Below, in pieces: positions 12,794 to 49,597 of a DNA stretch of 64,000 nucleotides (position 1 is its first letter; each line of letters begins with the position of its first letter). Origin of the DNA: an archaeon. GTDB lineage: Archaea > Iainarchaeota > Iainarchaeia > Iainarchaeales > 1-14-0-10-31-34. Location of the stretch: NCBI GenBank assembly GCA_024277355.1, contig JAJRVL010000011.1, forward strand, positions 34,155-98,154, written 5' to 3'. Made by a program: the position numbers and the translations under genes. The notes below the pieces were generated by a model. It did not search any database and was not told the DNA's origin. It was given only the letters and a program-made list of their open reading frames with translations.

Positions 12794-13192
12794 TTGAAGG
12801 GACAAATTTCAATTGAATATCTTACTTTAACTGCAATTGTTCTCCTTATTGTAGGAGTAATGTTTGTTTTTGCAATAACAACTGTAAATGAAAACGCAAG
12901 ACTTAATTCAGCTTATTATGCTACAAGAGAATTAGCTAATGCAGCAGATGAAGTAAGTACTAGAAATGGAAGCACTATTGTGGTTGAAATTGAACTGCCT
13001 TCAGATGTAACTTCTTTTTCAACTTTTGGGACAGACATTACAATTGAAATGACGTCTCTTTTAAATTCATTTCAGGTTTTTGATTCAAGCAAGGCATCAT
13101 TACAGCCGACAAATTTTTCCACTTCAGAAGGAACTCATTTTATTGCAGTGAATTCAACTGATTCAAATATCACTTTTACTGAACTTAATTAA
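12794..13192 (+). CDS. archaeal type IV pilin-like protein (class III signal peptide)
   Basis: TTG start. MKGQISIEYLTLTAIVLLIVGVMFV has a KG/Q cleavage motif with E at +5, followed by a hydrophobic helix. Confidence 0.6.
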   Translation: MKGQISIEYLTLTAIVLLIVGVMFVFAITTVNENARLNSAYYATRELANAADEVSTRNGSTIVVEIELPSDVTSFSTFGTDITIEMTSLLNSFQVFDSSKASLQPTNFSTSEGTHFIAVNSTDSNITFTELN

Positions 13193-13203
13193 AGGGATTA
13201 TAA

Positions 13204-13560
13204 ATGAAAGGGCAGGTTTCAATGGAAGTAATTATTGGAGCAATAATTTTATTGCTTGTATTGGTTTTTATCTGGATTTACAGTATTCAAACAAATGAAG
13301 GAATTGATGCATTAAAAAATTCAGTTGAATCAAAATCTTACTGCAGAGAAATTGCAGATACAATTAGTTCAGTTTATGCTTCAGGAACAAAAACTACAAT
13401 AGAATTTTATTCAGAAAAAGACTTTAATTTAAGCAATGGAATGGTTGATGTTAATGGTTTTCTCTGCAGTTATTATGCTGAAGCAGAAGAAAAATTTATA
13501 GCAAAAGGAAACATAAGAATAAAAGATTTGAACGGGGTTGTCGTGATTGAAAATATTTAA
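13204..13560 (+). CDS. archaeal type IV pilin-like protein (class III signal peptide)
   Basis: MKGQVSMEVIIGAIILLLVLVFIWI has the same class III signal architecture. Confidence 0.6.
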   Translation: MKGQVSMEVIIGAIILLLVLVFIWIYSIQTNEGIDALKNSVESKSYCREIADTISSVYASGTKTTIEFYSEKDFNLSNGMVDVNGFLCSYYAEAEEKFIAKGNIRIKDLNGVVVIENI

Positions 13561-14116
13561 GAGAAAATGCTCGGCTGAGCAAAGCGAATGCCGTGCACCG
13601 TCACACCCGAGCGGAATCGGGTCGCGAGCGAAATCGCGAGGGCAGTCAAGTTTAATTGATTTAGTTATTGGGTTTTTTATTTTTGCTTTGATTCTTGCTT
13701 CAATTATGGGAACTATAAATAAAAATACAAAAGATTTCACTAGAAATTCAGAAATAGATGAAATAAATCATGATTCTTTTTTTTCAGTAAAAGAATTAAC
13801 TGAAACAAAAGGTTTTCCTGAAAACTGGGAAATATTAGATGAAAATTCAGTTGAAAAAATAGGTTTAATTGAAAGGAGAAATACAATAAGTGAAGACAAA
13901 GTTGTTGCTTTTTCTAATATGACTTACAGCAAAACAAAAGAACTACTTAAAATAGAAGGATATGATTATTATTTTGTATTAAACGGAGTAGATAATATTA
14001 CTGCAGGAATAAATCCTGTTGGGCAAACAAAATATTCAATTATTACTAAAAGAATTGTAAATTATAAAGGAAGTGAAGCTGAAATTGAATTCAGATTATA
14101 TGAACTCTGGGAATAA
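13547..14116 (+). CDS. pilin-like protein with unusual GC-rich 5' segment
   Basis: The ORF reads through a ~80-nt 66%-GC island, then RGQSSLIDLVIGFFIFALILASIMG, a class III signal-like motif. The true start is uncertain (TTG in the track). Confidence 0.4.
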   Translation: MKIFKRKCSAEQSECRAPSHPSGIGSRAKSRGQSSLIDLVIGFFIFALILASIMGTINKNTKDFTRNSEIDEINHDSFFSVKELTETKGFPENWEILDENSVEKIGLIERRNTISEDKVVAFSNMTYSKTKELLKIEGYDYYFVLNGVDNITAGINPVGQTKYSIITKRIVNYKGSEAEIEFRLYELWE

Positions 14117-16820
14117 AGGATTTACTTTTACTTTAGATTCAATTCTTGCCTTGCTTATAGTTTCAGGAATAGTTATTTCTTCAGGATTATTTTTTACTGA
14201 AGAAAAAACTGAAATTAATTTAAGCCAGGAATTAAATGATTCATTTAATGCAATGGAAGAAACAGGTTATTTGATTAGTCAAGTGGATACAAATGTTTCT
14301 GGTTCAGCACAAAATATTTACAATAAATTAATTGGTTTTTTTCCTGACAGAATTGACTTTAATGTAACTGTAAAAGAATTAGACTTAAATAATACAAACT
14401 GCAGAGCAACACCAACTTTTAACGGCTGTTTTACTGATTCAAATGAATTTACTTTTGGTTCAAGTGTTCCAACAGACAAAACAATTTTTTATGGAAAAAA
14501 ATTAATAATAAAAAAACAACCTCCAGGAGAATGCGATACAAATATGCTTGGATTAGCAGAATATCCTTTTACATTTTATGAAAAAAACGATATCTTGTTT
14601 TTTGCGGGATCTGGAGATTTAAATTTTGTTTTTGATGTAAATGTAACTCCTTCAACTGAAATTGAATGCGACCAGAACATTACAATAGATTTAAGTGCAG
14701 CATTTCCTCCGGGTTATAGAAGACCTGTGGACATAATGCTTGTAATAGACAAAAGCGGTTCAATGAGCTGGGGGGGAAGATATGATACAAGCAGTGCAAG
14801 AGGAATAGATTTAGATGGAAATTATGCATATATTGCAGATTATAGCAATGGAATAAGAAGTTTTGATATTAGTGTTCCTTTAGTTCCTCAGTATTTGGAT
14901 AGATATGATACTTACAGAGCATATGATGTTTTTGTTGATGGAAGTGAAGCTTATTTGGCAGATTATTCATCTGGAATACGGTCAATTGATGTAAGCGATC
15001 CAAATAATATGAGTCAGGATGACAGAGTTGATTTATCTGTAAATTATTCTTTTGGAATAACAGTTAATGGAAATTATGCTTTTGCAGGCAATGGTTCAAG
15101 AGGAGTTGATTCCTATGACATAAGCAACCCAAACAACATGAATCAATTAGACAGATATAATACGCCTGGAACTGCAAGAGGAATTGATGCAAACGGAGAC
15201 TATGTTTATGTTGCAGATGGAGGAAGAGGATTAAGAGTATTAAATGCCTCAGATCCAAATGATTTATCTAATGAAGATTCTTTGGATTTAGGAGGATATG
15301 CTTATGATGTAAGAAATGTTGGAGATTATGCTTTTGTTGCAAATGGTTCAAGAGGATTAGATATTTTTGATGTAAGTGATCCTTCAGACATCAGTTCAAG
15401 AGGGCGGTATAATACTGCTGGAACTTCTTATGGAATTGATGTTGTTGGAAATACAGCTTATATTGCTGACGGAGGAGGAGGATTATATTCAATTGATATT
15501 AGTGATGTTGACAATCCTTCTTTAATTAAGAGATATGATACTCCTTATACTTATTATGATGTAAGAGTGAAAAATGGTTATGCTTTTATTGCAGCAGGAA
15601 ACATGGGGTTAATTACTTTGGATTTAACTTCAGGAACAAAAATGGATGCAGTTCATGCTTCAGCTAATGCTTTTGTTGACTTTAATGAATGGACTGATAA
15701 TGATCAAATGGGAATTGCAAGTTTTAATACAAGTTCAACTTTGGATTCACAATTACTAAAATTAGATGACACAAACAAAACACAATTGAAAAATGATATT
15801 AATGCAATAACTCCTGGCGGAGGAACAAACATTGAAGAAGGAATAAGAGAAGCAACAGATGAATTAATTTCAAGCAGAGCAGATCCTTATGCAATAAAAT
15901 TTATGGTGTTGCTTTCAGACGGAGTATCAACTTCAGGAGATTCACTTGATGCAGCACAAGATGCAAATGCAGAAGGAATAACAATTTATACAATTGGATT
16001 TGGCGGAGATGTAAGTGAATCAGAACTGCAGAATATTGCTAATGCAACTGATGGAAATTATTATTTTGCTTCAGATGCAAATACATTAATAGACATCTAT
16101 AATATTATTGCAGATAAAATTCAGGCTCAAGCAACTGATTCAAATGTAACAATTGTTGTTCCAAGTAATGTAACAATAATTAATGACGGAAACGCATCAA
16201 TAATTGACGGCAATTTAGTTTTTGATTCAGGAAATATTACTCCTGATACTCCCTGGCAGGGAAGTTATATCATTAATATTCCTTGTGATTCAAATTTAAG
16301 CTGCGACACTGCTTCAATTACTTTTCCCGGCCAAGGAAGCTTTTTGTCTTATGTTGATGTAAACGGAGTAACACAAACAGTTGACTGGAATAGTTTTACT
16401 GTTCCAATTCCATTTAAGAAAAGAGACATTACAGTTGAAATTACTAGTGGAGAATTGTTATCTGAAACAGATATTTTTATTGATGTAAATGTATCAAATA
16501 TTGGGGATTTAAATACCGGAACAACAGACTTAAATTTTTATTTAGGAAATGATTCAATCTGCAGTATTGGAGCAGGAAGAACTCTTTTGTCAAATCATTA
16601 TTTAGTTCCGGAATTATGCGGAAGCAATGATGAAAACTGTTCTTTTTCTACAACGCTTTATTTGGATGAATATATGTTAAGTCAGGGAATAATTTGTGCT
16701 GAAGTTAATCCTGACAGAAATTTAAAAGAATGTCCAAATAATAATCTTGATTCAATTCACTGTTATTTAGCTCCAAAAACACAGTTTTATGTAATTGAAT
16801 ACAGAGGATGGATTAAATGA
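14100..16820 (+). CDS. large pilin-led cell-surface adhesin: vWA domain interrupted by a 7-blade LVIVD beta-propeller, plus C-terminal CARDB-like beta-sandwich domains
   Basis: Likely start MNSGNKGFTFTLDSILALLIVSG (pilin-like N-terminus; track start is 14073). MIDAS DIMLVIDKSGSMS at ~14730, then 7 LVIVD-type repeats (GIDxxGNYAYIADxxxGIRSFDISDPNN), then the rest of a vWA fold (FMVLLSDG, ITIYTIGFGG). Many N-x-S/T sequons. Confidence 0.7.
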   Translation: MNSGNKGFTFTLDSILALLIVSGIVISSGLFFTEEKTEINLSQELNDSFNAMEETGYLISQVDTNVSGSAQNIYNKLIGFFPDRIDFNVTVKELDLNNTNCRATPTFNGCFTDSNEFTFGSSVPTDKTIFYGKKLIIKKQPPGECDTNMLGLAEYPFTFYEKNDILFFAGSGDLNFVFDVNVTPSTEIECDQNITIDLSAAFPPGYRRPVDIMLVIDKSGSMSWGGRYDTSSARGIDLDGNYAYIADYSNGIRSFDISVPLVPQYLDRYDTYRAYDVFVDGSEAYLADYSSGIRSIDVSDPNNMSQDDRVDLSVNYSFGITVNGNYAFAGNGSRGVDSYDISNPNNMNQLDRYNTPGTARGIDANGDYVYVADGGRGLRVLNASDPNDLSNEDSLDLGGYAYDVRNVGDYAFVANGSRGLDIFDVSDPSDISSRGRYNTAGTSYGIDVVGNTAYIADGGGGLYSIDISDVDNPSLIKRYDTPYTYYDVRVKNGYAFIAAGNMGLITLDLTSGTKMDAVHASANAFVDFNEWTDNDQMGIASFNTSSTLDSQLLKLDDTNKTQLKNDINAITPGGGTNIEEGIREATDELISSRADPYAIKFMVLLSDGVSTSGDSLDAAQDANAEGITIYTIGFGGDVSESELQNIANATDGNYYFASDANTLIDIYNIIADKIQAQATDSNVTIVVPSNVTIINDGNASIIDGNLVFDSGNITPDTPWQGSYIINIPCDSNLSCDTASITFPGQGSFLSYVDVNGVTQTVDWNSFTVPIPFKKRDITVEITSGELLSETDIFIDVNVSNIGDLNTGTTDLNFYLGNDSICSIGAGRTLLSNHYLVPELCGSNDENCSFSTTLYLDEYMLSQGIICAEVNPDRNLKECPNNNLDSIHCYLAPKTQFYVIEYRGWIK
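14794..15640 (+). repeat. seven tandem LVIVD-type repeats (~126 nt each) inside the adhesin gene
   Basis: Repeated peptide pattern Y(A/D)V...G(N/D)YA(Y/F)(I/V)A(D/N)G..G(I/L)...D(I/V)SDP. Confidence 0.6.
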
Positions 16821-17776
16821 AAAATAAAGGAATCTTTTTTCTTTTAATGGGATTAATTCTTTCTCTTTTAGTTTTGGGTTTTGGATTTAAAATAAACCAG
16901 CAGTATCTTGAAGCAGAAAAAAAATCATTTAATTCAAATGCATTACAACAAGTTAAAAACAAATACTCAAATATTAATTCAGTTAAAGACTTTTACAGAG
17001 AAGGAACAATAAAAACTTATTTTGAAAGAATTGTTCCGATTACTTATTCGGTTGATGAAAATACAATAAGCATTACTCAACAGCTTCCGATAAAAAAAGC
17101 TTTAGTGCGAAATTTTTTTGATTTTGTTAATGCATTTGAAATTTTCACTGAAACAACTGATTCATTAGTTTATGACGGAATAGATGTTGAAATTGAAACT
17201 GTTCAAAACAGTTTATGGGGAGGAACAGATGAAAACATTGTTTTAATGATTAAACCTCAATGCAAAAAATATTCAATTACAGATTATAATTCAATGCATT
17301 TTTATGGTTCAAATGAATGCGACAATGCTTTTGATATCAGTTTAATTGAAAGAATTGACATAAATATTACTGTAAGTTCAGATGATGATTTTAACAGATT
17401 ATCCTGTAATTTCGGAGGCGATTTAGTCTGTTATCAGGAAACTTATGTGCCTGCAAACCCAAATCCATTTATTGAAATAAACTTGATTGATTCAGCCTGC
17501 CCTAATTGCGATTTAAATTCAGATACAAGAACAATAAAAAAACATTTTACTCCTACTTCTGCAAACACAGTAATTTTTTCATGTTCAGGAACATGCACTT
17601 CTCTTCCAATAGAAATATTATTTAATGAAAATAATACTGAAATAAGGCATTCAGGAACAACAATAAGTGTTAAAACTGAATTTTTGTTTACAGACAAAAT
17701 AACTGAATTTGAATTAAATGATTTAAACATAAGTTTAACTGACTCAAAATTTAGTATAACAAAAACAAATAAGTGA
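16817..17776 (+). CDS. hypothetical pilus-associated protein with N-terminal hydrophobic anchor (minor pilin-like)
   Basis: 319 aa. MKNKGIFFLLMGLILSLLVLGF N-terminus, Cys-containing body. ATGA overlap with the adhesin. Confidence 0.4.
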   Translation: MKNKGIFFLLMGLILSLLVLGFGFKINQQYLEAEKKSFNSNALQQVKNKYSNINSVKDFYREGTIKTYFERIVPITYSVDENTISITQQLPIKKALVRNFFDFVNAFEIFTETTDSLVYDGIDVEIETVQNSLWGGTDENIVLMIKPQCKKYSITDYNSMHFYGSNECDNAFDISLIERIDINITVSSDDDFNRLSCNFGGDLVCYQETYVPANPNPFIEINLIDSACPNCDLNSDTRTIKKHFTPTSANTVIFSCSGTCTSLPIEILFNENNTEIRHSGTTISVKTEFLFTDKITEFELNDLNISLTDSKFSITKTNK

Positions 17777-17780
17777 AAAA

Positions 17781-18842
17781 ATGAATGCCATGAATTTAAT
17801 TTCAATAATTGCTTCAATAGCAATAATAATTGCAGTGTTTTTTGTCGCTAATGAAAACATTGTTAATTTTGAAAACACAAAAACACAAATAGAAATTCAA
17901 TCAAAAGAAAACTTTGAACAAGGAGAAAATGCAGAATTTATAATAAACATAGAAAGCGGAAAAGAAATAACAAAAATAATTTATATTTCTCCCACAAAAA
18001 GAGAAGAAAAAAATTGCGGAAAAAAAACATGCGTTTTGACTTTTAAGGAAATATTTACAGAAAAAGGAGTTTTTTTTATTGAAATAAAAGTTGAAATAGG
18101 AAAAGAAACATTCAGTGAAAAAAAGAAAGTTTATGTAAATGCCGCAGGAAAAAAATGTTCTGATGGAACTGCTTTTGGGTTATGCTCTTTAAACAAACCA
18201 CAATACTGCAATAACGGCAAACTTGAATATAACTGTGAAAAATGCGGATGTGAACAAGGAGAATGCATTAATAATAAATGCAGTTATTCAGGAACAACTG
18301 AAATTACAGGAATTTCACTTGAAAGAACATTTTTTGAGCCAAATCAGGAAGTGAAAATTAATTTAAATTCAAAAGAAAATAGTTTAGTTAATGTTGTAAT
18401 TGAATGGAAAAAAGACAATAAAACAGAAAAAACAGAAACAAAAAATACTTCATTAAATTATGTTCTGTCAGTTTCTCCGCCAAAAGAAGGAGTATATGAA
18501 TTAAACTTAGTTTTTGAAGAAAAAGTTTTTTCAGTTGAAAACATAACAATAAGAAATGACTCAACACCCCCAAAAACACCTGAAGGAATTATTGCAAGCA
18601 AAAGAAACGGAAAAATACTTATTGCATGGAATCCAAATACTGAAGCTGATTTAATGGAATACAGAATTTACAGGAGTAAAGAAGATAATCAGGCGTTTAC
18701 AACTTATACTATGGCAGAAACTGCATCAAAAAATGAAACCGGGAAAGAACTTGAAATATGGTCAACAAATTATTTTTACATTACTTCAGTTGACTATTAC
18801 GGCAATACATCAAAGCCAAGTGCAATAATTGAAGCAACGTGA
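17781..18842 (+). CDS. hypothetical surface protein, N-terminal TM anchor, Cys-rich middle, FN3-like C-terminal domain
   Basis: 353 aa. C-terminus PPKTPEGIIASKRNGKILIAWNPN...YRIYRS...YFYITSVDYYGNTSKPS resembles a fibronectin type III domain. Confidence 0.4.
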   Translation: MNAMNLISIIASIAIIIAVFFVANENIVNFENTKTQIEIQSKENFEQGENAEFIINIESGKEITKIIYISPTKREEKNCGKKTCVLTFKEIFTEKGVFFIEIKVEIGKETFSEKKKVYVNAAGKKCSDGTAFGLCSLNKPQYCNNGKLEYNCEKCGCEQGECINNKCSYSGTTEITGISLERTFFEPNQEVKINLNSKENSLVNVVIEWKKDNKTEKTETKNTSLNYVLSVSPPKEGVYELNLVFEEKVFSVENITIRNDSTPPKTPEGIIASKRNGKILIAWNPNTEADLMEYRIYRSKEDNQAFTTYTMAETASKNETGKELEIWSTNYFYITSVDYYGNTSKPSAIIEAT

Positions 18843-18888
18843 AAATTAAAAAGAATAAATAACTAAATATAACAACAGGTAATTAAAA

Positions 18889-20655
18889 ATGGAAAAAGAA
18901 CAGCAGAAAAAAAATTTATTAATAAGCAAAATGCTTGAAGCAAAAAGAATAGAATTAGGAATCATAGAAAACCAGTTATTATACAAACTAAAAATTTTAT
19001 TTAAAAAACCTGAAAAAACTAAAAGCCAAAAAATAAATGAACTAAAAAAAAGTCTTGAAAAAAAAGAAACAGACGAACTTGAATTAATGCTTGTTGAAAA
19101 AGAACACGCATTAATAAAACTTGAAACAACAGTAAAAGAAAAAAAAGACAAAGAAAAATTAAAAGAAGTAATAAAACTAGTTGAAAAAATAAAAAACAGT
19201 GAAGGCGAAAGAGGCAAAATAGGAATGGAAATAGGCTTAAAAAGAAAAGAAATAAAAGAACTCAAAAAAGAAGTAGAACAGAAATTAAAAGATATAACCA
19301 GAGAAAAAACTATTCTGACTCCAAAAAAGAAAAAAATTAAGAAAACAGAAATAAAAAAAGGAAAAAAAACTAAAAAGAAAAAAGAAAAGAATTCTTCAAC
19401 TCTTCTAAAAAAAAGAAAAAAAGAAAAAGTTTCAGGTTCATCCAGAAAATTAAAGAAAAAAACTAAAATAGAAATGAAAAAACCAAAAATTTCTTTTTCT
19501 TCACCTGAAGAAGAATTAAAAGCAAAAAGAGAACAAGAAGTAAAAGAAAAAAGGAAAAAAGCCATGGCTGCATTTCATCAGAATTTTACTTCAGGAAACG
19601 AAACTTTAATTAACATTAAAGGAAACGCTCAAATAGTTTCAGGAACAAGAGGCACAGGAACAACAGGAATAAACAATAAAGAAACAGCAAAACAAACTGA
19701 ATATGCTGAAAGCAGAAAAAATGAAGAACTTGAATTTGACATACAGAAAACAAAAGAAAAAATAAAGAACTTAAAATCCGCTTTTTTCCACAGACAAATA
19801 AATGAAGAAACATACAAGAAAAAACAGTTTGAATACCAAGAAGAATTAAGCTCACTTGAAATGGAAAAAAAAAGGCCAAAAAAAAGAAGTTTTGCTCCTG
19901 TTCAAAAAACAGAATCTGTTTCAGCTTATGCAGGATTAAAAACAGTTCAGGATGAAAGCGTTCAGTTTGCAACAAAACACACTCAAAAAAGCAGAGCAAA
20001 AGTAAAAAATGCATTAAAGAGATTTAAAAAAGAATTTAATGCAGGTTCAAAAACAAAAGCCAATTTAGATTCCGAAGAAAAAACACGTGTTAAAACTGAA
20101 CCAGAAGAAATAAAACCAACCGGAATAATAAAAAGACTTGCTCCTGGAACAAGCCAGGAAAAAGAAATGGAAATGGAAAAAAAGCTTTATAGGGTAATGC
20201 AAAAAAATCAGATTGACCAAAGCAGGATTAGAAGAGAATTTGAATTTGTTTCAGCTAAAGATTTAATGAAAAGGTTTGACAAAATACTTGATGTAATTGA
20301 CAACAAGTATTCTCAAACAGAAAAACCTGCAGAAAAAGAAGAAAAGCCATTTGAAGAAGGATTGTATGTAACAAACAAACAAACTTCCCAAAAAACAGGA
20401 GAAATAAGAGACATAAAAGAAAAAATAATAGTAACTGATTTTGACAGATTACTTGAATTAGTAAATAAAAAAGGAAAAGTAAACGAAAAAGAAGCAGAAA
20501 AAACACTTAAATTAAGTCCAGAAAGAATAAAAGAATGTTATACTGTATTAGAAAAGAATGACTTAATTAGAATAGAATACCCTATGTTTGGAGGAACACA
20601 AATTTTTTCAAAAAATTTTGTTGAACCAAAAAAAATTAAAAAGAAAAAAAAGTGA
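18889..20655 (+). CDS. Lys/Glu-rich coiled-coil protein with low-complexity poly-K linker and C-terminal winged-helix-like domain
   Basis: 588 aa. Long KKKK-rich tract. C-terminus IIVTDFDRLLELVNKKGKVNEKEAEKTLKLSPERIKECYTVLEKNDLIRIEY. It lies between pilin genes and the pilus ATPase. Confidence 0.4.
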   Translation: MEKEQQKKNLLISKMLEAKRIELGIIENQLLYKLKILFKKPEKTKSQKINELKKSLEKKETDELELMLVEKEHALIKLETTVKEKKDKEKLKEVIKLVEKIKNSEGERGKIGMEIGLKRKEIKELKKEVEQKLKDITREKTILTPKKKKIKKTEIKKGKKTKKKKEKNSSTLLKKRKKEKVSGSSRKLKKKTKIEMKKPKISFSSPEEELKAKREQEVKEKRKKAMAAFHQNFTSGNETLINIKGNAQIVSGTRGTGTTGINNKETAKQTEYAESRKNEELEFDIQKTKEKIKNLKSAFFHRQINEETYKKKQFEYQEELSSLEMEKKRPKKRSFAPVQKTESVSAYAGLKTVQDESVQFATKHTQKSRAKVKNALKRFKKEFNAGSKTKANLDSEEKTRVKTEPEEIKPTGIIKRLAPGTSQEKEMEMEKKLYRVMQKNQIDQSRIRREFEFVSAKDLMKRFDKILDVIDNKYSQTEKPAEKEEKPFEEGLYVTNKQTSQKTGEIRDIKEKIIVTDFDRLLELVNKKGKVNEKEAEKTLKLSPERIKECYTVLEKNDLIRIEYPMFGGTQIFSKNFVEPKKIKKKKK

Positions 20656-20659
20656 TTAA

Positions 20660-22180
20660 ATGAAAGAAAAAGTTTTAGAAACATATAAAGTAAAATCAAT
20701 TGAAACAGAAATAGAAGTAAATATTATTGAAAGAGAAAAAGAAGTAGTAAGAATTTATTTTTTAAATTTTCCTGAATTTGGAGCAGGAACAAAAGCCGTA
20801 TTAAAAAATTTAAAAAGAAGCATTATAACTGATTCAACAATTCAGGCAGAAAAAATGATGGATCCTAATTTTGTTGATTCACTTAAAAGAAAATTTCAGG
20901 GAAGAGCAGAAAAAATACTTGAAAAAGAACTTCCAAATATAGCTGAAGGCTCAAAAAGTTTGTTAATAGGATTATTATTAGAAGAAATGCTTGGATTAGG
21001 CAAATTAGAGTTTTTATTAAATGACGGAAACATTGAAGAAATAGTTGTAAATACTGCAACTGAACCAGTATGGATTTATCATAAAGGATATGGCTGGCTG
21101 AAAACAAATGTTTTTATTACTCCTGAAAAAGAAATACAAAATTATGCAAGTATTATTGCAAGAAGAATTGGAAAACAAATTACAATATTAAATCCTTTGC
21201 TTGATGCACATTTAATTACAGGAGACAGAGCTAATGCAACTTTATTTCCTATTTCAAGCAAAGGAAACACTATTACAATAAGGCGTTTTAGAAGAGAACC
21301 ATACACTATAACTGATTTTGTTGAAAACCGAACACTTAACACCGATATAATGGCTTTAGTATGGCTTGCAATGGAATATGAATTAAACATTATTTTTTCA
21401 GGAGGAACAGGTTCAGGAAAAACCACTTCATTAAATGTTTGTCTGCCTTTTATTCAGCCAAACCAAAGAATTTTAAGTATAGAGGACACAAGAGAACTTT
21501 CACTTCCAGAATATCTCCACTGGGTTCCATTAACTACAAGAGAACCAAACACTGAAGGAAAAGGCGAAGTAACAATGCTTAATTTATTAGTTAACTCTTT
21601 AAGAATGCGTCCAGACAGGCTGATTGTAGGAGAAATCAGAAGGCAAAGAGAAGCAGAAGTATTATTTGAAGCAATGCATACAGGACATTCAGCTTACACT
21701 ACTTTTCACGCTAACACAGCAGAAGAAACAATCAGAAGATTAGTTAATCCTCCAATTGAAATTCCAAAAACAATGCTTGATTCAGTTCACTTAAATATAG
21801 TAATGTTTAGAAACAGAAGATTAAATGTAAGAAGAGTGCTTCAGGTAGCTGAATATGTAACTGAAAGAAGAGGAGACACAGAAGAAGTAAAAGCAAATAT
21901 TTTATATCGATGGAAAGGAGCAACAGATACAATAGAAAAACATTCTGAAAGCATTAGATTATTTGATGAATTAGGATTACATACAGGTTTAAGCAAACAG
22001 GAAATGAACAATGAATTAAAAACAAAAAAGAAAATTCTTGACTGGATTACATCAAACAAAATTCGTTCAATACAGCATGTTGGAAGGATAATGGCAGATT
22101 ATTATATGAATAAAGACAACATAATTGAATTAGCAGAAAAAAACAAAAAACCAGATTATATTTTTGAGGAGAAAAAATGA
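20660..22180 (+). CDS. type IV pilus/archaellum-type assembly ATPase (FlaI/PilB/TadA family)
   Basis: 506 aa. Walker A FSGGTGSGKTTSLN, Asp box and Walker B region, His box (EAMHTGHSAYTTFHAN), typical of secretion NTPases. Confidence 0.85.
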   Translation: MKEKVLETYKVKSIETEIEVNIIEREKEVVRIYFLNFPEFGAGTKAVLKNLKRSIITDSTIQAEKMMDPNFVDSLKRKFQGRAEKILEKELPNIAEGSKSLLIGLLLEEMLGLGKLEFLLNDGNIEEIVVNTATEPVWIYHKGYGWLKTNVFITPEKEIQNYASIIARRIGKQITILNPLLDAHLITGDRANATLFPISSKGNTITIRRFRREPYTITDFVENRTLNTDIMALVWLAMEYELNIIFSGGTGSGKTTSLNVCLPFIQPNQRILSIEDTRELSLPEYLHWVPLTTREPNTEGKGEVTMLNLLVNSLRMRPDRLIVGEIRRQREAEVLFEAMHTGHSAYTTFHANTAEETIRRLVNPPIEIPKTMLDSVHLNIVMFRNRRLNVRRVLQVAEYVTERRGDTEEVKANILYRWKGATDTIEKHSESIRLFDELGLHTGLSKQEMNNELKTKKKILDWITSNKIRSIQHVGRIMADYYMNKDNIIELAEKNKKPDYIFEEKK

Positions 22181-23070
22181 TTGATAAAAGTGAAATAATT
22201 CCTTTCAATATTCTTCCAGTTCCATTAATAAAAAAACTTTCAATGAAATTTTATGGTACAGGAACAAAATTATCAAAATTTTTTCCTGATTTAAAATTAG
22301 AGTTAGCTCAGGCAGAATTAGCTTACAGCGAAAAAGAATACAGTGCAATAATCATTACAATGGCAGTAATTTACGGTGTTATTGGATTAATAATTGGATT
22401 ATTGTTTGGTTTCAGGCTTTTTCCTGATGGATTTATTTTAGTTGGGTTAGGCGGAGGAGCATTAGTTGGTTTTTTTGTAATGTTTCAGGTTGCTTTTTAT
22501 CCAAAAATAAAAGGAAAAAAGAAAATAAGAGAAATTGAAAGAAATTTAATTTTTGCTTTAAGGACAATGAGTGTAGAAATAAAATCAGGAGTTTCATTAT
22601 TTGATTCACTTAATATTATAGCACAAGGAGATTATGGTGCTTTATCAATTGAATTTGGCAAAGCAGTAAAAGAAATTGAAACAGGAACAATGGAAGAAAA
22701 TGCATTAGAAAAAATTGCAAGATATAATCCTTCATTGTTTTTCAGAAGAAGTATATGGCAGATAATTAATGGAATGAAAGCAGGAGCAGATGTAAGTTCA
22801 GTAATGGAAGAATTAGTTGCAACAATGATAAGAGAAGAAAAATTACAGATAACAAGATACGGTAATTCAATGAAATTACTTTCATTAATGTACATGATGT
22901 TAGGTGTAATAATTCCTTCTTTAGGAATAACTTTTTTGATTATATTATCTTCTTTTCCTCAAATGCAGTTAGGAGAATTATTATTCTGGATGTTATTAGG
23001 AGTTATTATTGTAGGTGAATTTATGTATTTAGGAATATTAAAATCAAAAACACCAAATTTAATGGGATAA
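22177..23070 (+). CDS. TadB/FlaJ-like platform membrane protein (one T2SSF domain)
   Basis: 297 aa. T2SSF-like block LIFALRTMSVEIKSGVSLFDSLNIIAQGDYGALSIEFGKAVKEIETGTMEENALEKIA plus TM helices. Confidence 0.7.
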   Translation: MIDKSEIIPFNILPVPLIKKLSMKFYGTGTKLSKFFPDLKLELAQAELAYSEKEYSAIIITMAVIYGVIGLIIGLLFGFRLFPDGFILVGLGGGALVGFFVMFQVAFYPKIKGKKKIREIERNLIFALRTMSVEIKSGVSLFDSLNIIAQGDYGALSIEFGKAVKEIETGTMEENALEKIARYNPSLFFRRSIWQIINGMKAGADVSSVMEELVATMIREEKLQITRYGNSMKLLSLMYMMLGVIIPSLGITFLIILSSFPQMQLGELLFWMLLGVIIVGEFMYLGILKSKTPNLMG

Positions 23071-23071
23071 A

Positions 23072-23467
23072 ATGTATGAAAAAATTAGTTCAATGATTCC
23101 AAGAAATGTCTTAAAGGCATTTAAAAACGAATTAACATATGCAGGAATAGACTTAGATGAAAAAAACTTTGTTGGTTTTGTGTTTGTTTTTGGTTTTGCA
23201 ACAGCAATTGCAGCAGGATTTGCTTTAAATTTCTTTTTTTCACTTCATTTTTTTATTGGATTTATTACAGGATTTATTTTAACTGTAGGGGGAATTTATT
23301 ACCTGCTTAATCAGGCAGGAGACAGCAAAGCAAGATTTGTAGAAAAAATTCTGCCTGACGCACTTCAATTAATTGCTTCAAACATGAAGTCAGGATTAAC
23401 AACAGAAAAAGCATTATTGGTTTCATCAAGACCTGAATTTGGTGCATTAGCAATAGAATTAAAATAA
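23072..23467 (+). CDS. TadC/FlaJ-like platform protein, N-terminal fragment (ends at an in-frame TAA)
   Basis: 131 aa. Ends ...ILPDALQLIASNMKSGLTTEKALLVSSRPEFGALAIELK* in the middle of a T2SSF domain. It is in the same frame as the next ORF. Confidence 0.5.
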   Translation: MYEKISSMIPRNVLKAFKNELTYAGIDLDEKNFVGFVFVFGFATAIAAGFALNFFFSLHFFIGFITGFILTVGGIYYLLNQAGDSKARFVEKILPDALQLIASNMKSGLTTEKALLVSSRPEFGALAIELK

Positions 23468-23479
23468 GCAAGCAAAAAA

Positions 23480-24055
23480 ATGATGACTGGAGAAAGAACT
23501 GAAACAGCCTTAAAAGAAATGACTTTAAAAATAAGATCAAAAATTTTCAGTAAAACAGTCTGGCTTATAACAGAAGGAATTAATTCAGGCGGAGAAATGG
23601 CTAACTTGCTTTTACAGTTGTCTAATGATTTAAGAGAGCAGAATGCATTACAGGAAGAAGTAAAAGGAAATGTTTCAATGTATGTAATTTTGATTTTTTT
23701 TGCTTCAGTTATTGGCGCACCATTAATGTTTGGAATAAGTTCTTTTATTGTACAGATAATGGCAAAACAAGCAGGTGGTTTATCAGGATTATCAGAAGAA
23801 AGTTTAGCTTTAGCTTCATCTCAAGGAGCATTTTCATCTGGAACAGGAATAAGTATTACAGCTGACTTTATTGTAATGTTTTCAATGATAACTTTGTTTG
23901 TTATTTCAGTTTTTGGTTCACTTACAATAGGAATAATAAGTACTAGAAGTGAAAAAGGCGTAATAAAGAATATTCCTTTAATGTTAATTTCATCTTATGT
24001 GATTTACTTTATTGTTTTAACTGTATTACAATCAACTTTTAGTTCATTGGTTTAA
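23480..24055 (+). CDS. TadC/FlaJ-like platform protein, C-terminal fragment
   Basis: 191 aa. Continues the same T2SSF domain (MMTGERTETALKEMTLK...GINSGGEMANLLLQLSNDLREQ), paralogous to the 22177 ORF, then 3 TM helices. Confidence 0.5.
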   Translation: MMTGERTETALKEMTLKIRSKIFSKTVWLITEGINSGGEMANLLLQLSNDLREQNALQEEVKGNVSMYVILIFFASVIGAPLMFGISSFIVQIMAKQAGGLSGLSEESLALASSQGAFSSGTGISITADFIVMFSMITLFVISVFGSLTIGIISTRSEKGVIKNIPLMLISSYVIYFIVLTVLQSTFSSLV

Positions 24056-24927: not shown

Positions 24928-25626
24928 ATGCCAAGATTAACTGACAGAACAAAAACAGGAGTTCCAGGATTAGATGAATTACTGGACGGCGGGATTCCAA
25001 GAGGAAATTTAGTTGTATTAGCAGGAGACCCTGGTTCAGGAAAAACCTGTTTTTGCCTTGAATATCTATACAAAGGAGCATTGGATTACAACGAACCAGG
25101 AATATATATTTCATTAGAAGAAAGCTATGCTGAAATAATACGAAACGGAAGAGAATTTGGATATGAATTAGAAGAATTAATAAAGAAAAAAATGCTGATA
25201 ATTGAAACAGTAGAATTATATGATTTTGAAAAACTGAAAAATTTAATTGAAGATTCAATTCAGATAATTAATGCAAAACGATTAGTAATTGATCCTGGAG
25301 TAATTTTCAGATTATATTTTGATAGAGAATTAGATGCAAGAAAAAGAATAATGAGTTTAGGAAAAATGCTTAAATTAATTGACTGCACTACTATAATAAC
25401 AAATGAAATTAATTTAGACAAAACAAGAAGTTTATTTGGATTAGAAGAATATGTGGCTGACGGAGTGTTGTTGCTGTATCATACAAAAATAGAAAACAGG
25501 TTTGTAAGAAGTTTAGGTGTATTAAAAATGAGAGGAACAAAAATATCAGAAAAACTTCATCCAGTTACAATCGGCCCAACAGGAATAAAAGTTTTATCAA
25601 AACAAGAATTATTTGAGGATATATAA
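24928..25626 (+). CDS. KaiC/RadA-family (RecA-superfamily) ATPase, single domain
   Basis: 232 aa. GLDELLDGGIPRGNLVVLAGDPGSGKTCFCLEYL (Walker A) and Walker B LVIDPG. Confidence 0.75.
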   Translation: MPRLTDRTKTGVPGLDELLDGGIPRGNLVVLAGDPGSGKTCFCLEYLYKGALDYNEPGIYISLEESYAEIIRNGREFGYELEELIKKKMLIIETVELYDFEKLKNLIEDSIQIINAKRLVIDPGVIFRLYFDRELDARKRIMSLGKMLKLIDCTTIITNEINLDKTRSLFGLEEYVADGVLLLYHTKIENRFVRSLGVLKMRGTKISEKLHPVTIGPTGIKVLSKQELFEDI

Positions 25627-26455
25627 AATGAAGAAAAAAAAAGCAAAACAAAAGGTTAAACTGAAAAAAGCAGTTAAAAAACCAAAAAACAAAAAAAAGC
25701 CAAGTTCAATTAAAGAATTAGAAAACTTACTTACAAAACCATTAAAGCAGAAAAGAACTTTTGTGACAAAAGAAGAAAAAAGTATTGTAAAACAAAAAAA
25801 TAAAATAAACAGCAAAATTGAAATGAAAACAAATCTTGAACAAGAAATCCATCCTGATGCTGAATTATCAGAATTAATTGACCCAAAAAGAGGCATTGAC
25901 TTAAAGATATTAAGATATTTAGAAGAACTTCCAAAAGAACAGTTTACTGCATTGCTTTTAGTTGAACCAACAAATTACTCTAAAATAAACTATGAATTAT
26001 TAAGGCTTTTAATAAACCATACAAAAGGAAAAGGAATATATGTAACTTTAAATCGTGCTTATGAATTTGTAGAAGAAACACTAAAAAAAGAAAAAATTGA
26101 TACAGAACAAATAGTTTTCATTGATGCAATAAGCAAAGGAACAGGAAAAAACATTGTATCCAGAGAAAACGTTGAATACATTGAATCCCCAAGAGATTTA
26201 ACTGCATTAAGTGTAATATTAGATGAAACATACCAGAAAATGACAGAAAAACCAAAATTTATGGTGTTTGATTCAATCAGCACTTTATTGATTTACAATG
26301 ATGTTTCTTCAGTTGAAAGATTTACTCATTTAATTATAGGAAAATTAAGGGAATGGCGGATGAAAGGAGTATTATTAATGGTTAAATCAGAAGAACACAG
26401 AGGAGTAGTTAATTCATTAAGCCAGTTCTGCGACAGAATTCTTGAAATAATATAA
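25613..26455 (+). CDS. KaiC-like domain protein lacking Walker A (predicted inactive), poly-K N-terminus
   Basis: 280 aa. RecA-like core (FMVFDSISTLLIYNDVSSVERFTHLIIGKLREWRMKGVLLMV) without a GxxxxGKT P-loop. Paralog of the 54615 ORF. Confidence 0.45.
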   Translation: MRIYKMKKKKAKQKVKLKKAVKKPKNKKKPSSIKELENLLTKPLKQKRTFVTKEEKSIVKQKNKINSKIEMKTNLEQEIHPDAELSELIDPKRGIDLKILRYLEELPKEQFTALLLVEPTNYSKINYELLRLLINHTKGKGIYVTLNRAYEFVEETLKKEKIDTEQIVFIDAISKGTGKNIVSRENVEYIESPRDLTALSVILDETYQKMTEKPKFMVFDSISTLLIYNDVSSVERFTHLIIGKLREWRMKGVLLMVKSEEHRGVVNSLSQFCDRILEII

Positions 26456-32681: not shown

Positions 32682-34535
32682 TTGAAAAAGATGTATTTAA
32701 TTAAAGAAAACAAAGACAAAAAATATTTGGTTTTATCAGGGAATAAAGGATTTTATTTAAGGTATTTAGATAATGGATTTAAAACTAAATGGACTGGTTT
32801 ATGGAAAGATTCAGTGAAATATTTAGAATATTTTGCAGTCAAAGGCTTAGAAGAAGAAAAATGCATTAAAACAGAATACACTTATGGAAAAGCAGTTTAT
32901 TATTACAAAGGAATAACAGAAACAAACTTAATTCCAAAAAACAAAACAGGTTTATACATAAAACTTGAGTTTGGGAAAGAAAAACAAACTGAAATAGAAT
33001 TAGCTTTAAATATAAGAAAAAGAGAAGAAAATTTAACTAAAAGAAAATATAAAATAAAATTTAATAAAAAGAAAAAAGAAATAAAAATTTCAAATGAATT
33101 AAGTGCATTAACTTTTTTTTTAATTAAAGGAGAACTTAATTTTCAAGAACAATCTTATGAAAAAATTCATTTTCCTTCAGATGAAAAACAAAACTGCTTT
33201 ATTCCCGGAAAAATTTCAGTTAAAGGAAAAGAAATAATTTTTGGGTTAATCCCAGAAAAAGAAAAAAAATTAAATAAACGAGAAATAGAAAAAGAACTGA
33301 AAAAACAAAAAATTCAAAACAAGAAAACTGAAGAATTAATTAAATGCAGTTCAAAAGAAATAGAAAAAGGATTTATTAATTCAGTTAAGGCAGTTGAACT
33401 GCTTGAAAACAACGGGAATTTTTTTGCTGGTTATCCCTGGTTTCTGCAGTATTGGGGAAGAGATAATTTATGGAGTTTAAATGCATTAATTTCAGCAGGC
33501 AAATTTGAATTAACTGAAAAAGTTTTATTGTATTTCTGGAAAAAAAACAGTAACGGAAAAATACCAAACTTTATTGACGGCAAAAAAGTGTTATTTAATT
33601 CAATTGATGCTTCATTGTTATTTTTAATTTCCCTGCAGAATTATGTTTTTGCTTCAGGAAACAAAAAAATTTTAAAGAAAATTAAATACACTGAAGTGTT
33701 GGATTTTCTTAAATCAAGAGAAGAAAACAAATTGATTTTTCATGAAGGAAATGAAACATGGATGGATTCAATTGAAAGAAAAGGAAAAGCAATTGAAATT
33801 CAAGCACTATATCTTAAAGCACTACATTGTGCAAGGAATTTAATGAAATTAGAAGGAAAAGAAAAAGAAGTTCATTTAACTGAAAAAAAAGCTGTTAACT
33901 TAAACAGGAAAATAATTGAAGAATTTGAAGTTAACGGAGTTTACAGGGATTTAGTTAATGAAAAAAATGAATTCATTAAAACATGCAATCCTTTGGTTTA
34001 TTTAATGGGAAAGAAAGCAGAAGAAAAAGAAATTGCTTTATTTGAATCAGAAGAATTTAATGGACTAAAAGGAATTTTAACAAGAAGCAAAAAAGAACAG
34101 GGATTTGATTCAGAAGGATATCACACAGGATTAAGCTGGAGTTTAATTAACGGCTGGATGAGTTGTGTTGAATTTAAAGCCGAAAAAACAAAAAAAGGAT
34201 TGTTTTATCTACAAAAATTAATTGAAGATTTAAATCAAGATTGTATTGGAGGAATAGGGGAATGCTGGTCTCTTGATGGAAAACTAAAAGGGTGCGGAAT
34301 GCAGTTATGGGGAAATGCTTTTGTAATTAAAATTATCGATGAATTTATGCTAGGAATAAAAATAAATGAATTTGAAAAAAAAGTTTTTTTAAAACCGCAA
34401 TTGCCTGAAAAAATTAATTTAATTAAAAGAAAAATAAGAATTGGAAATACTTGGTTTGAACTTATTGTTGAAAGAAAAAAAAGAAAGGTTTCAGCTAAAA
34501 CAGACAACAAGAAAATTAAAATTGAATTTTATTGA
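32682..34535 (+). CDS. glycogen-debranching-enzyme-like (GDE_C / amylo-alpha-1,6-glucosidase-type) six-hairpin glycoside hydrolase
   Basis: 617 aa. Hallmark GYPWFLQYWGRDNLWSLNAL matches the WF.dWGRDt.Isl motif of the GDE_C family. Confidence 0.6.
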   Translation: MKKMYLIKENKDKKYLVLSGNKGFYLRYLDNGFKTKWTGLWKDSVKYLEYFAVKGLEEEKCIKTEYTYGKAVYYYKGITETNLIPKNKTGLYIKLEFGKEKQTEIELALNIRKREENLTKRKYKIKFNKKKKEIKISNELSALTFFLIKGELNFQEQSYEKIHFPSDEKQNCFIPGKISVKGKEIIFGLIPEKEKKLNKREIEKELKKQKIQNKKTEELIKCSSKEIEKGFINSVKAVELLENNGNFFAGYPWFLQYWGRDNLWSLNALISAGKFELTEKVLLYFWKKNSNGKIPNFIDGKKVLFNSIDASLLFLISLQNYVFASGNKKILKKIKYTEVLDFLKSREENKLIFHEGNETWMDSIERKGKAIEIQALYLKALHCARNLMKLEGKEKEVHLTEKKAVNLNRKIIEEFEVNGVYRDLVNEKNEFIKTCNPLVYLMGKKAEEKEIALFESEEFNGLKGILTRSKKEQGFDSEGYHTGLSWSLINGWMSCVEFKAEKTKKGLFYLQKLIEDLNQDCIGGIGECWSLDGKLKGCGMQLWGNAFVIKIIDEFMLGIKINEFEKKVFLKPQLPEKINLIKRKIRIGNTWFELIVERKKRKVSAKTDNKKIKIEFY

Positions 34536-34620
34536 AAAAAAATAATAGAAATAAAATTGCATTAATCAAAAAAAAGTTAATTAAAATAAAGTGAAATAAA
34601 AAAAAGTTAAAGTAATTTTT

Positions 34621-35988: not shown

Positions 35989-36031
35989 TCAAAACCAATA
36001 GAAATATAAAAACCAAAGCATTAAAGACATT

Positions 36032-37018
36032 ATGGAAGCAAACGAACTGAGAAAAGATTACTTAATGGATGAATGGTCAATTATATCCAAAAACCGTTCT
36101 TCACGCCCTTTTGATCATAAAACATCAGAAAAATTAAAAGAAACAGAAAAAATTGAAGTGGATGTAAACTGCCCTTTTTGTTTAGGAAATGAAAAACAGA
36201 CTCCTCCTGAAATTTTCAGAACAGGAAGCAAAATTAAATGGAATTTACGGGGATTTGCAAACAAATTTTCTGCAATGCAGACAGAAAAAGAATTTTCAAT
36301 TCAAAAAAAAGGGTTGCTTGAATTTGATGATGCTTTTGGTTATCATGAAGTAATAGTTGAAACAAATAATCATTCAAAAGAATTAGCTGAATTAAATAAA
36401 CAGGAAATGACTGAATTATTTACTGCATACCAAGAAAGAGAAAACAAATTAAAGAAAAGAAAGGGAGTAAAACATGTTTTAATAATAAAAAATTTCGGCA
36501 AAGAATGCGGGGCTTCATTAAGGCATAATCATTCACAATTAATTACTTTTCCTTTTGTTCCTCCAAAAATTGAATTAGAAATAAAAAAAGCAGAAGAATT
36601 TTTTAAAGAAAAAGGAAAAAACGTTTTTTTGGAAATAACTGAAACTGAAAGCAAAACAGAAAGAAAAGTATTTGAAAACGAAAATTTTGTTGCTTTTACT
36701 GCTTTTGCACCTAAATGGACTTATGAAACATGGATTACCCCAAAAAAACAATTTTCTAATTTAAGTGAAATGGATGAAAAAACATTGAAAGATTTAGGAG
36801 AAATAACTGAATTTGTTTTAAAAAAAATAAAGAAAAATTTAGGCAATGCTTCATATAATTATTTTTTGCATGAATCAATGACACAAAATAAAGCTTATTG
36901 TTTTCATTTGAAAATCCAGCCAAACGTCAAAAAAATTTACGGCGGAATAGAAAAAGCTTCAGATATAATTTTAATTGAAGTTTCTCCGGAACAAGCAGCA
37001 GAAGAACTAAGGAAATGA
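36032..37018 (+). CDS. GalT-like (galactose-1-phosphate uridylyltransferase family, HIT superfamily) nucleotidyl transferase/phosphorylase
   Basis: 328 aa. Zn-site CPFCLGNE and catalytic H-x-H-x-Q (LRHNHSQL). Confidence 0.6.
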   Translation: MEANELRKDYLMDEWSIISKNRSSRPFDHKTSEKLKETEKIEVDVNCPFCLGNEKQTPPEIFRTGSKIKWNLRGFANKFSAMQTEKEFSIQKKGLLEFDDAFGYHEVIVETNNHSKELAELNKQEMTELFTAYQERENKLKKRKGVKHVLIIKNFGKECGASLRHNHSQLITFPFVPPKIELEIKKAEEFFKEKGKNVFLEITETESKTERKVFENENFVAFTAFAPKWTYETWITPKKQFSNLSEMDEKTLKDLGEITEFVLKKIKKNLGNASYNYFLHESMTQNKAYCFHLKIQPNVKKIYGGIEKASDIILIEVSPEQAAEELRK

Positions 37019-37087
37019 AAACCTTAATCCATTAAATTTAATAAAAGAAAGAACAGATTATTAGTGGAAAAACTGTTTTGTGATTAA

Positions 37088-38869: not shown

Positions 38870-38880
38870 TAATTTTTAAT

Positions 38881-39177: not shown

Positions 39178-39234
39178 TTTATGCCCTCCTAAGAAAGTTA
39201 ATTCATTAATATTGTAAAAAATAAATTATTAAAT

Positions 39235-48688: not shown

Positions 48689-48703
48689 TTAAAATGAAAA
48701 AAA

Positions 48704-49555: not shown

Positions 49556-49597
49556 ATTAATAGTTAGATAAAAAAAAAAGCAACAATATAAAAAGGA

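Follow-up and report, generated by a model that had tools for sequence, protein, structure and literature searches.

Introduction

Intercistronic or REP-type hairpins set differential expression within operons, for example in pap, other fimbrial operons, and malEFG. The same arrangement, namely a stable hairpin right after the stop codon of the upstream (major subunit) gene of a pilus or fimbrial operon, was analyzed here in an archaeon. The locus lies in a 64-kb stretch of contig JAJRVL010000011.1 (hereafter, the window, with positions counted from its first nucleotide), in which a type IV pilus-like operon carries, within its third pilin-like gene, a GC-rich island at 13569–13647 on the + strand. 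Tentatively, and with a confidence just short of an even balance, this island is read as a clade-specific, vertically inherited, cis-acting mRNA structure within the coding region of the pilin 3 leader.

Other described systems share further properties with the island. The leaders of bacterial type IVb pilins are 15–30 aa in length, and the leader of pilin 3 is likewise several-fold longer than usual and still ends in a Gly cleavage motif. Stimulatory RNA structures, such as readthrough and frameshift pseudoknots, are located approximately 5–9 nt past the recoding site; similarly, the structure described here starts 8 nt past a stop codon and includes a possible small H-type pseudoknot. Among selfish sequences, the Rickettsia palindromic elements (RPEs) are approximately 150 bp in length, form dispersed multicopy families (44 insertions counted in R. 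conorii), and code for a conserved peptide (PMC10969869). The likeness to RPEs lies in a palindromic in-frame insertion within an open reading frame (ORF) of a reduced AT-rich genome. Yeast mitochondrial GC clusters (GC42) and other mitochondrial hairpin repeats are also similar, as they are GC-rich palindromes in a very AT-rich genome, with constrained stems, varying loops, and modules that merge and shuffle (PMC4478555, PMC2800124).

Insertion of a GC-rich island into the pilin 3 leader

The GC content of the island was 65.8%, compared with 28.1% for the window, and the 100-nt flanks of the island had 30% and 22% GC. A preliminary description of this DNA had assigned approximately 66% GC to 13566–13650; this value was recovered for 13569–13647, the 79-mer quoted there, but the full span has 62.4% GC. 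The claim of a compositional outlier was borne out, as the island is the highest-GC 79-nt stretch of the 64 kb (z = 6.2) and the sole such island in it, the second best stretch reaching a GC fraction of 0.51 at 7386. Moreover, 12 CpG dinucleotides were counted in the 79 nt of the island versus 8.5 per kb window-wide, which corresponds to an approximately 18-fold enrichment. The island also ranked first as a GC outlier in each orthologous locus with a GC-rich insert.

A protein search gave 11 ortholog clusters, and the corresponding DNA was obtained from more than 10 independent JGI, NCBI, and Logan assemblies (these loci are numbered with the prefix L). The closest named relatives are DPANN metagenome-assembled genomes labelled Candidatus Diapherotrites and "Micrarchaeota". 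Further genome and metagenome scans yielded 3 and 7 additional loci, respectively, which were mainly duplicates; the clade is small, and the covariation statistics given below can hardly be improved with public data. All orthologous loci have the gene order GAPDH, DUF553-like gene, pilin 1, 118-aa pilin 2, pilin 3, and VWA protein.

The island had been suggested to be an inserted sequence, and it is indeed an insertion relative to the insert-less orthologs (L010 and L014/15/26, with L016 having one extra codon). The insert-less or nearly insert-less leaders read MKTFRG↓Q, MKTVKG↓Q, and MKTSETA↓Q (↓, cleavage point), and the insert follows the first four or five codons and precedes the Arg/Lys-Gly-Gln motif. 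From the comparison of leader lengths, the extra DNA of the window amounts to 78 nt, or 26 codons of translated leader extension, at 13559–13636 (+), with boundaries ambiguous by approximately 3 nt. The other insert-bearing loci have 60 (L001), 126 (L002/3), 57 (L004 type; L004–7/L017), 75 (L008 type; L008/L018), 138 (L009), 54 (L011/12), and 21 (L025) extra nt. The lengths of all 11 leader variants are multiples of 3, and none contains an in-frame stop. In a neighbor-joining tree of the mature protein, the insert-bearing sequences formed one group with the insert-less ones outside, which is consistent with a single gain of the insert followed by its remodeling.

Pilin-like gene 3 (13547–14116, +) encodes a 189-aa precursor with a TTG start and a mature part from Q33 (QSSLIDLVIGFFIF...), as assigned from the ORF and the ortholog starts. 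The TTG at 13547 overlaps gene 2 by 14 nt, is kept within 'ATTGAAAA' in 10 of the 11 distinct orthologs, and is also used in the NCBI annotation of a relative (PIN98555.1). From this codon, the reading frame is open through the island to RGQSSLIDLVIG. Since the leader lengths are all multiples of 3 and stop-free, and since the NCBI start is identical, the insert is translated. The leader in the window comprises 96 nt, or 32 aa, and ends in SRG↓Q; those of L010 and L014 comprise 18 nt. Accordingly, the long leader noted in the preliminary description is in frame through the island and atypically long, but it counts 32 aa up to the Gly and not approximately 35. ATG CTC GGC TGA at 13567–13578 forms a 3-codon mini-ORF, 6 nt past the gene 2 stop and in a frame different from that of pilin 3, and its ATG (13567) is shared with L001 and not with the other lineages.

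The class III cleavage motif [KR]G↓Q was located by protein alignment at 13637–13645 (+), where it is encoded by CGA GGG CAG (Arg-Gly-Gln), and pilin-like genes 1 and 2 have it likewise (MKGQ). Pilin 3 reads ...SRG↓QSSLIDLVIGFFIFALILASIMG, with the [KR]-G cleavage motif, a small or polar residue after it, and the approximately 20-residue hydrophobic helix of a class III signal; the short charged leader of such signals is lacking, as it has 32 aa versus 6–7 aa in the insert-less orthologs. The pilus context of an archaeal prepilin is provided by a T2SSE-type ATPase and a T2SSF-type platform protein in the locus. No Pfam match was obtained for pilin gene 3, including PF04021 (Class_IIIsignal), and gene 1 scored 23.2 bits against PF04021, just below the cut-off of 23.7 bits. 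The predicted structure of pilin 3 has a long helix at residues 36–69 followed by beta strands, and its pLDDT of 42 makes it indicative only. In the wider family (1114 homologs at E ≤ 1e-3), the KGQ motif was found at residues 2–7 in nearly all of the top 150 representatives. Because these representatives have leaders of 2–7 aa, the long leader is a peculiarity of a small clade. As the class III motif is present, established knowledge of prepilin processing suggests that a prepilin peptidase would remove the extended leader and leave the mature pilin unaltered; no gene for a peptidase of the PibD/FlaK type was identified in the window. The odd 189-aa gene call with its aberrant N-terminus is thereby explained, and annotators can regard the TTG start and the long leader as genuine.

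Conserved hairpins in the insert

The inserts are built from a repeated unit, which consists of hairpin A, a linker RCCGUUAC(A/U), hairpin B with an NCGRAA loop, and then (A)GGGCAG encoding Gly-Gln. In the window (+ strand), a spacer of 8 nt (13561–13568, read from the sequence) separates the gene 2 stop from hairpin A (13569–13596). The arms of hairpin A, GCUCGGC (13569–13575) and GCCGUGC (13590–13596), enclose an apical UGAGC-AAA-GCGAAU, and the 5' arm begins and the 3' arm ends with GC. The linker ACCGUCACA (13597–13605), with the consensus RCCGUUAC-A/U in the insert alignments, leads to hairpin B (13606–13621, CCCGA-GCGGAA-UCGGG), and both hairpins were defined by alignment and RNAalifold. 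An extra hairpin B' (13622–13639, UCGCGA-GCGAAA-UCGCGA) with a perfect 6-bp stem was found in the sequence and in the minimum free energy fold, with a 3' arm that overlaps the codons for Ser and Arg directly before Gly-Gln. Its counterpart in L001 is CUUGCGCU-CGAA-AGCGCGAG; L001 is without the hairpin B of the window and retains the last hairpin. Among the inverted repeats listed in the preliminary description, TCGCGA-GCGAAA-TCGCGA (13622–13639), which has counterparts in relatives, and the GTGCAC palindrome were confirmed. Pairing of gctcgg with ccgagc (13569–13574 with 13607–13612) is possible, but the relatives back GCUCGGC (13569–13575) with GCCGUGC (13590–13596).

Two units in tandem are present in L009 and L002. 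In L009 (logan ERR14790950_27436, 150–300), the two A-linker-B units are accompanied by a 17-nt direct repeat, GGAATCGGCTCGCGAG(T/G), and the upstream unit has mismatches and appears to be decaying. In the same locus, the TTG start is mutated to CTG, and a GTG in the second hairpin A loop was called as the start.

The stems are wholly different between lineages, and their complementarity is retained. Hairpin A stems are GCUCGGC/GCCGUGC, GCACACC/GGUGUGC, GCAGGACU/AGUCAUGC, and GUGCUAUC/GAUAGCAC, and hairpin B stems are CCCGA/UCGGG in the window, GCCGA/UCGGC in L004, CUCGCGG/CCGCGAG in L008, and CUUGCGCU/AGCGCGAG in L001. The loop and linker sequences (NCGRAA, CCGUUAC, and the purine-rich apical loop) are stable while the stems swap. 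In the alignment, 82% of the cells were paired versus 66% in column shuffles, and none of 500 shuffles matched this value. Eight of the 12 pairs were altered on both sides, namely five of seven in hairpin A (A4 columns 1–7 with 22–28, 84% of cells paired) and three of five in hairpin B (A4 columns 38–42 with 49–53, 80% of cells paired). When the partners were slid by 1–3 columns, pairing fell to 19–46%. RNAalifold returned the same two helices without a supplied structure, with compensatory changes in 9 of 12 pairs. Moreover, the + strand fold was as good as or better than the shuffles in all seven inserts (z from -0.9 to -4.95). A structured or regulatory RNA had been suggested for the island, and the suggestion is reasonable because the hairpins are conserved and covarying by both the pairing statistics and RNAalifold.

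A pseudoknot of 3 bp is possible between the linker CCG (13598–13600) and CGG (13612–13614), for which L001 has instead UUCG with CGAA. In this helix, 75% of the cells were paired and one pair covaried, which weakly suggests a small pseudoknot.

The CGCGAG block is kept, but its codon phase varies by lineage (xCG CGA GGG versus GCG AGA GGG), and coupled substitutions (for example, CAC to CAG together with GGG to GGC) retain the base pair and not the amino acid. Therefore, the constraint acts on the nucleic acid and not on the peptide. The distance from the gene 2 stop to hairpin A is also regular. It measures 8 nt in four lineages (the window, L002, L004, and L009) and 9 nt in L011, and is thus 8–9 nt in five of the seven, though the spacer sequences differ; the exceptions are L001 with 5 nt and L008 with 29 nt.

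Retention of GC content and proposed function

The genome has 9.7% GC at its 4-fold degenerate sites, and the insert stays at 55–67% GC in five lineages. The compared lineages are 56–77% identical at 4-fold sites, for which the equilibrium expectation is 42%. From a rough calculation, we infer that a neutral sequence with 65% GC should drop below approximately 40% GC over the divergence between the window and L008. Since the GC content was retained against a background of approximately 10% over this divergence, the comparison argues that a stable structure is being maintained, whether to the benefit of the host or of a selfish element. The L011 insert has 54 nt and 38% GC with only a hairpin-A-like stem left, and L025 carries a 21-nt AT-rich remnant; both look like decay where the constraint was lost.

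The genes of the operon overlap or abut, the intergenic space is nearly nil, and there is no spacer between genes 2 and 3. Because of these overlaps, the cleaved leader would be the sole place near the gene 2/3 junction where an RNA structure could be accommodated without protein damage. According to the general geometry of the ribosome, a structure 8 nt past the gene 2 stop would be positioned at the mRNA entrance of the ribosome during termination on gene 2, and it would also lie just outside the footprint of a ribosome that initiates at TTG 13547. Acting in cis on the polycistronic mRNA, such an intercistronic stem-loop would most likely uncouple the amounts of the upstream pilins from the output of the downstream genes for minor pilins, adhesin, and assembly. 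It may be an exonuclease barrier or a processing site that protects the pilin 1–pilin 2 message, or the downstream message after cleavage, and this would make the major subunits differ in level from the minor ones, as is the case for fimbrial operons of bacteria. In addition or instead, it may modulate termination–reinitiation at the weak overlapping TTG. A more specific proposal is that the double hairpin, perhaps together with the small pseudoknot, represents an archaeal cis-regulatory RNA of an undescribed type, embedded in signal-peptide coding sequence, which would tune reinitiation at the TTG or mark a processing or stability boundary and hence set the major:minor pilin ratio. This proposal is distinctly unlikely at present.

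Should the element act on the mRNA, it would show that a regulatory RNA can be housed in a discarded stretch of protein when the genes of a genome overlap and non-coding DNA is scarce, and cleaved signal-peptide leaders would become an added place to look for regulatory RNAs. The stoichiometry of pilus subunits in uncultivated DPANN archaea would also become more accessible to study.

Several points weigh against a cis-acting mRNA structure. The mechanism is inferred throughout, and the covariation was obtained from 8 units of 6 distinct loci, with an alignment and a structure chosen by the authors and with phylogeny-blind shuffles. Taken by itself, the sequence of the window folded no better than shuffles of equal GC content (z = -1.2 for the + strand and -1.3 for the - strand); therefore, the evidence for structure must come from comparison. 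The strand is not identified by wobble pairs, as 1–3 G-U pairs occur on the + strand and approximately four A-C mismatches, which equal G-U on the - strand, were also found. The regular spacing could be mere inheritance, and it is broken by L001 (5 nt) and L008 (29 nt). The insert-less relatives share the overlapping gene arrangement, and thus the element is dispensable. As no U-tract directly follows the hairpins on the + strand, the element is not a classical intrinsic terminator, and a terminator scan showed no + strand site at the element. Finally, covariation is no proof of host benefit because selfish palindromes keep their stems and template-switch repair of quasi-palindromes can mimic covariation; the selfish palindromes of yeast mitochondria, GC42, also retain their stems (PMC4478555).

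The nearest T-run on the + strand, T6-A-T5 at 13665–13676, is located 25 nt past the last hairpin and encodes FFIF of the conserved GFFIF motif. Oligo-T tracts are archaeal termination signals. Since T-rich tracts occur in all orthologs, the insert-less ones included, this tract is not specific to the element.

Copy number and search for known families

A covariance model of the unit (R1) was run with filters off on the window, which represents approximately 6% of a genome of approximately 1 Mb, and a single match (70.7 bits) was obtained at the island. On 54 kb of DNA from the relatives, R1 matched at orthologous sites only. The possibility of a common repeat, which had been raised in the preliminary description, is not supported by this single copy within 64 kb. 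Pfam scans of approximately 50 ORFs of the window detected housekeeping and pilus genes and no transposase or HUH nuclease. Inspection of the insert junctions revealed no terminal inverted repeats or target-site duplication, marks that an old insertion could have lost. A blastn search of the element against plasmids and phages gave no match, and two pattern scans of viral contigs gave either nothing or chance matches in GC-rich contigs.

A known RNA family was likewise not recovered. At the gathering threshold, Rfam 15 matched no family in the 64-kb window, a permissive search of 401 nt gave nothing over the element at E ≤ 10, and the relatives had no match either. The search with a 90-nt sub-window returned only a chance 19-nt match to sR11 (E = 3.9; 10.9 bits versus a gathering threshold of 39).

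Individual candidates were also considered and rejected. For a tRNA, split tRNA, or tRNA-like structure, ARAGORN reported nothing in the 64-kb window or in six relatives, and the 6-nt loop of hairpin B is without the T-loop sequence. In the case of a hammerhead, K-turn, C/D, or H/ACA reading of CUGA...GAA, the core positions did not fit on inspection, and there was no Rfam support. A fragment or mimic of 16S rRNA was rejected as the clade consensus is CCGUUAC and no match to the small-subunit rRNA model was found; the 10-mer CCGUCACACC (13598–13607), which is identical to the universally conserved 10-mer of the 16S decoding site, is presumably a coincidence. On the - strand, 13581–13568 contains a terminator-like hairpin, TGCTC-AGCC-GAGCA, followed by TTTTCTCTTA; the A-rich spacer and the 5' end of the element together make up this site. 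As no convergent - strand gene ends there, this site is probably due to chance.

Alternative explanations

The strongest competing explanation is a small palindromic GC cluster, either selfish or neutral (a miniature inverted-repeat transposable element, an RPE, a cluster of the mitochondrial type, or an IS200/IS605-type miniature), that landed once in the leader and does nothing for the host. It would persist and expand locally since the cleaved leader tolerates any in-frame sequence, and its stems would be kept by the needs of the element or by template-switch repair. This explanation is possible but lies on the unlikely side. It accounts for an in-frame insertion in an ORF of an AT-rich reduced genome, like RPEs (PMC10969869), and for GC-rich palindromic modules that merge, duplicate, and shuffle, like yeast GC42 (PMC4478555), as seen in the tandems of L009 and L002. 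It also accounts for a dispensable element, which insert-less relatives do without and which is decayed or shrunk in L011 and L025. The conserved GUUAC 5' of the hairpin loosely resembles the TTAC target of IS608. However, the covariance model found one copy in the 64 kb and none off-site in the 54 kb of the relatives, the window encodes no transposase or HUH nuclease, and neither terminal inverted repeats nor a target-site duplication was seen. The tree fits one ancient gain rather than repeated insertion, and the GC content was kept at 55–67% against the 10% background across a substantial divergence. If the island is a selfish GC cluster after all, archaea would have a rare counterpart of the RPEs of Rickettsia and of mitochondrial GC clusters, and the leader would exemplify a "safe harbour" for such elements.

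All readings other than the cis-acting structure and the selfish cluster are unlikely even when combined. Among them, a function of the peptide is improbable. A long, hydrophilic, and positively charged leader would in this case delay or control the processing or export of this minor pilin, with the high GC content as a side effect. The frame is intact in 11 of 11 variants, all leaders are hydrophilic and rich in Ser, Arg, and Ala, and the [KR]G↓Q motif is kept, as this explanation would have it. Nevertheless, there is no amino-acid conservation among leaders of 13–52 aa, CGCGAG is read in different frames by lineage, the paired changes preserve base pairs rather than residues, and a GC content of 65% is not needed for a peptide.

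Improbable to a slightly greater degree is a separate gene for a small RNA, on one strand or the other, or a site acting as DNA, such as a cruciform or a palindrome bound by a protein, that overlaps the leader by chance. GC islands of AT-rich archaeal genomes are typically RNA genes, the - strand folds approximately as well as the + strand in several lineages, and the - strand has the terminator-like hairpin with a T-run at 13581–13568. These points are countered by the lack of any Rfam, tRNA, C/D, or H/ACA-type match and of an archaeal promoter context conserved in the relatives, in which the 5' flank is a variable coding sequence. In addition, the full turnover of the stem sequences argues against sequence-specific binding of double-stranded DNA.

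RNA removal or recoding (a bulge-helix-bulge intron, bypass, or frameshift) is very improbable. It was considered since ATG 13567–13569, 6 nt past the gene 2 stop and shared with L001, is followed by an immediate stop (ATG CTC GGC TGA), and joining this ATG to CGA GGG CAG, to give back a short leader with an ATG start, would need the removal of 67 nt. No ATG is present there in L004, L008, L009, or L002, however, and the TTG frame is open in every variant, which makes removal unnecessary. The internal loop of hairpin A (UGA/GAAU) forms directly opposed bulges and not two 3-nt bulges 4 bp apart, and no slippery site was found at the right distance. A +1 frameshift fusion of genes 2 and 3 was rejected as well, as the frame is open anyway, the ATG and any slippery sites are not conserved, and the membrane topology of the fusion protein would presumably be wrong.

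Finally, the preliminary description had raised an assembly chimera and a fragment of a GC-rich host genome. Either of these, or a recent acquisition from a contaminant, has only the compositional contrast in its favor and is scarcely credible. Such origins are effectively refuted by the orthologs because homologous inserts occur at the same site in many independent JGI, NCBI, and Logan assemblies (L004 type in four JGI samples and PFAI01000036, L002 in two JGI samples, L008 in JGI and JAHJUD010000101, and L001 and L009 in Logan runs), and the element lies at the orthologous site throughout the clade, evolves in place, and has no match in plasmids, phages, or viral contigs beyond chance pattern matches.

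Genes around the island

The type IV pilus-like operon (type IV filament, TFF) extends over 12794–24055 (+), as assigned from Pfam and NCBIfam scans, and its gene order is the same in the relatives. It begins with pilin-like gene 1 (12794–13192, +), which has the class III-type N-terminus MKGQISIEYL. Pilin-like gene 2 (13204–13560, +; from the ORF list) encodes 118 aa starting with MKGQVSMEV... and ends with TAA at 13558–13560; this 118-aa gene is kept in all orthologous loci. Pilin gene 3 is followed by a gene for a 915-aa VWA/LVIVD protein (14073–16820, +; Pfam), which overlaps the end of pilin 3 and is present in all orthologous loci. A VWA domain and five LVIVD repeats were detected in this protein, which probably serves as an adhesin of the pilus tip. 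With a start at the ATG near 14098, its N-terminus would resemble a class III signal, MNSGNKG↓FTFTLDSILALLIV. Further downstream on the + strand are a FlaI/T2SSE-type ATPase (20660–22180; T2SSE match at 4e-37, FlaI-like) and a T2SSF platform protein in two parts, the first at 22177–23070 (T2SSF match at 2e-16) and the second, UpsF C-terminal-like by Pfam and NCBIfam, at 23480–24055. A split platform protein has been described for the systems of some DPANN in a preprint on archaeal TFF systems (10.64898/2026.04.22.720090). Several unknown genes are also present within the operon. A pair of KaiC-like ATPases (24928–25626 and 25613–26455) lies downstream of it, and a third KaiC/DUF7504-like gene was found at 54615–55223.

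Elsewhere in the window, a bacterial-type MEP/DOXP isoprenoid run occupies 46744–52038 (+) in an otherwise DPANN-like contig. Domain scans identified DXR (46744–47760), IspD (47999–48688), IspF/YgbB (49615–50145), and DXS (50215–52038), and an unassigned 283-aa ORF (48704–49555) lies at a position at which IspE could be expected, all on the + strand. Archaea normally use the mevalonate route, which suggests that these genes were horizontally acquired. A glycogen/starch cluster at 32682–41654, with amylo-alpha-1,6-glucosidase-like, phosphoglucomutase, GalT-like, glycogen synthase, GH57, and GT4/GT5 starch synthase-like genes, is also present in this small AT-rich genome.

Comparison with known systems

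Like mobile elements, the island contains hairpin-forming palindromes, namely two covarying hairpins and a third perfect palindrome of 6 bp. Unlike RPEs, the element is 57–78 nt in length, occurs as one copy in 64 kb, and is confined to one orthologous site; it is also far GC-richer than the genome, encodes no conserved peptide, and is located in the cleaved-off part of a protein. Mitochondrial clusters are abundant, mobile, and mostly intergenic, whereas no second copy was found here, and one gain with vertical descent fits the data. As multiple copies were lacking within the 64 kb of the window and the 54 kb of the relatives, the element does not fit a dispersed mobile family; a low-copy family is possible.

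The long leader of type IVb pilins is a trait of the family, whereas the present leader results from an insertion limited to a small clade within a family of more than 1000 homologs. In contrast to recoding structures, readthrough of the gene 2 stop would add only five codons, no slippery site is conserved, and the downstream gene has its own conserved start. The known intercistronic hairpins are placed in bacterial non-coding spacers, whereas this element is placed in the coding sequence of the signal peptide of the next gene, in an archaeon, and its effect is a predicted one. Taken together, the element is a hairpin conserved at the RNA or DNA level within a signal-peptide leader that is disposable, and it differs from the hairpins of known operons by being translated.

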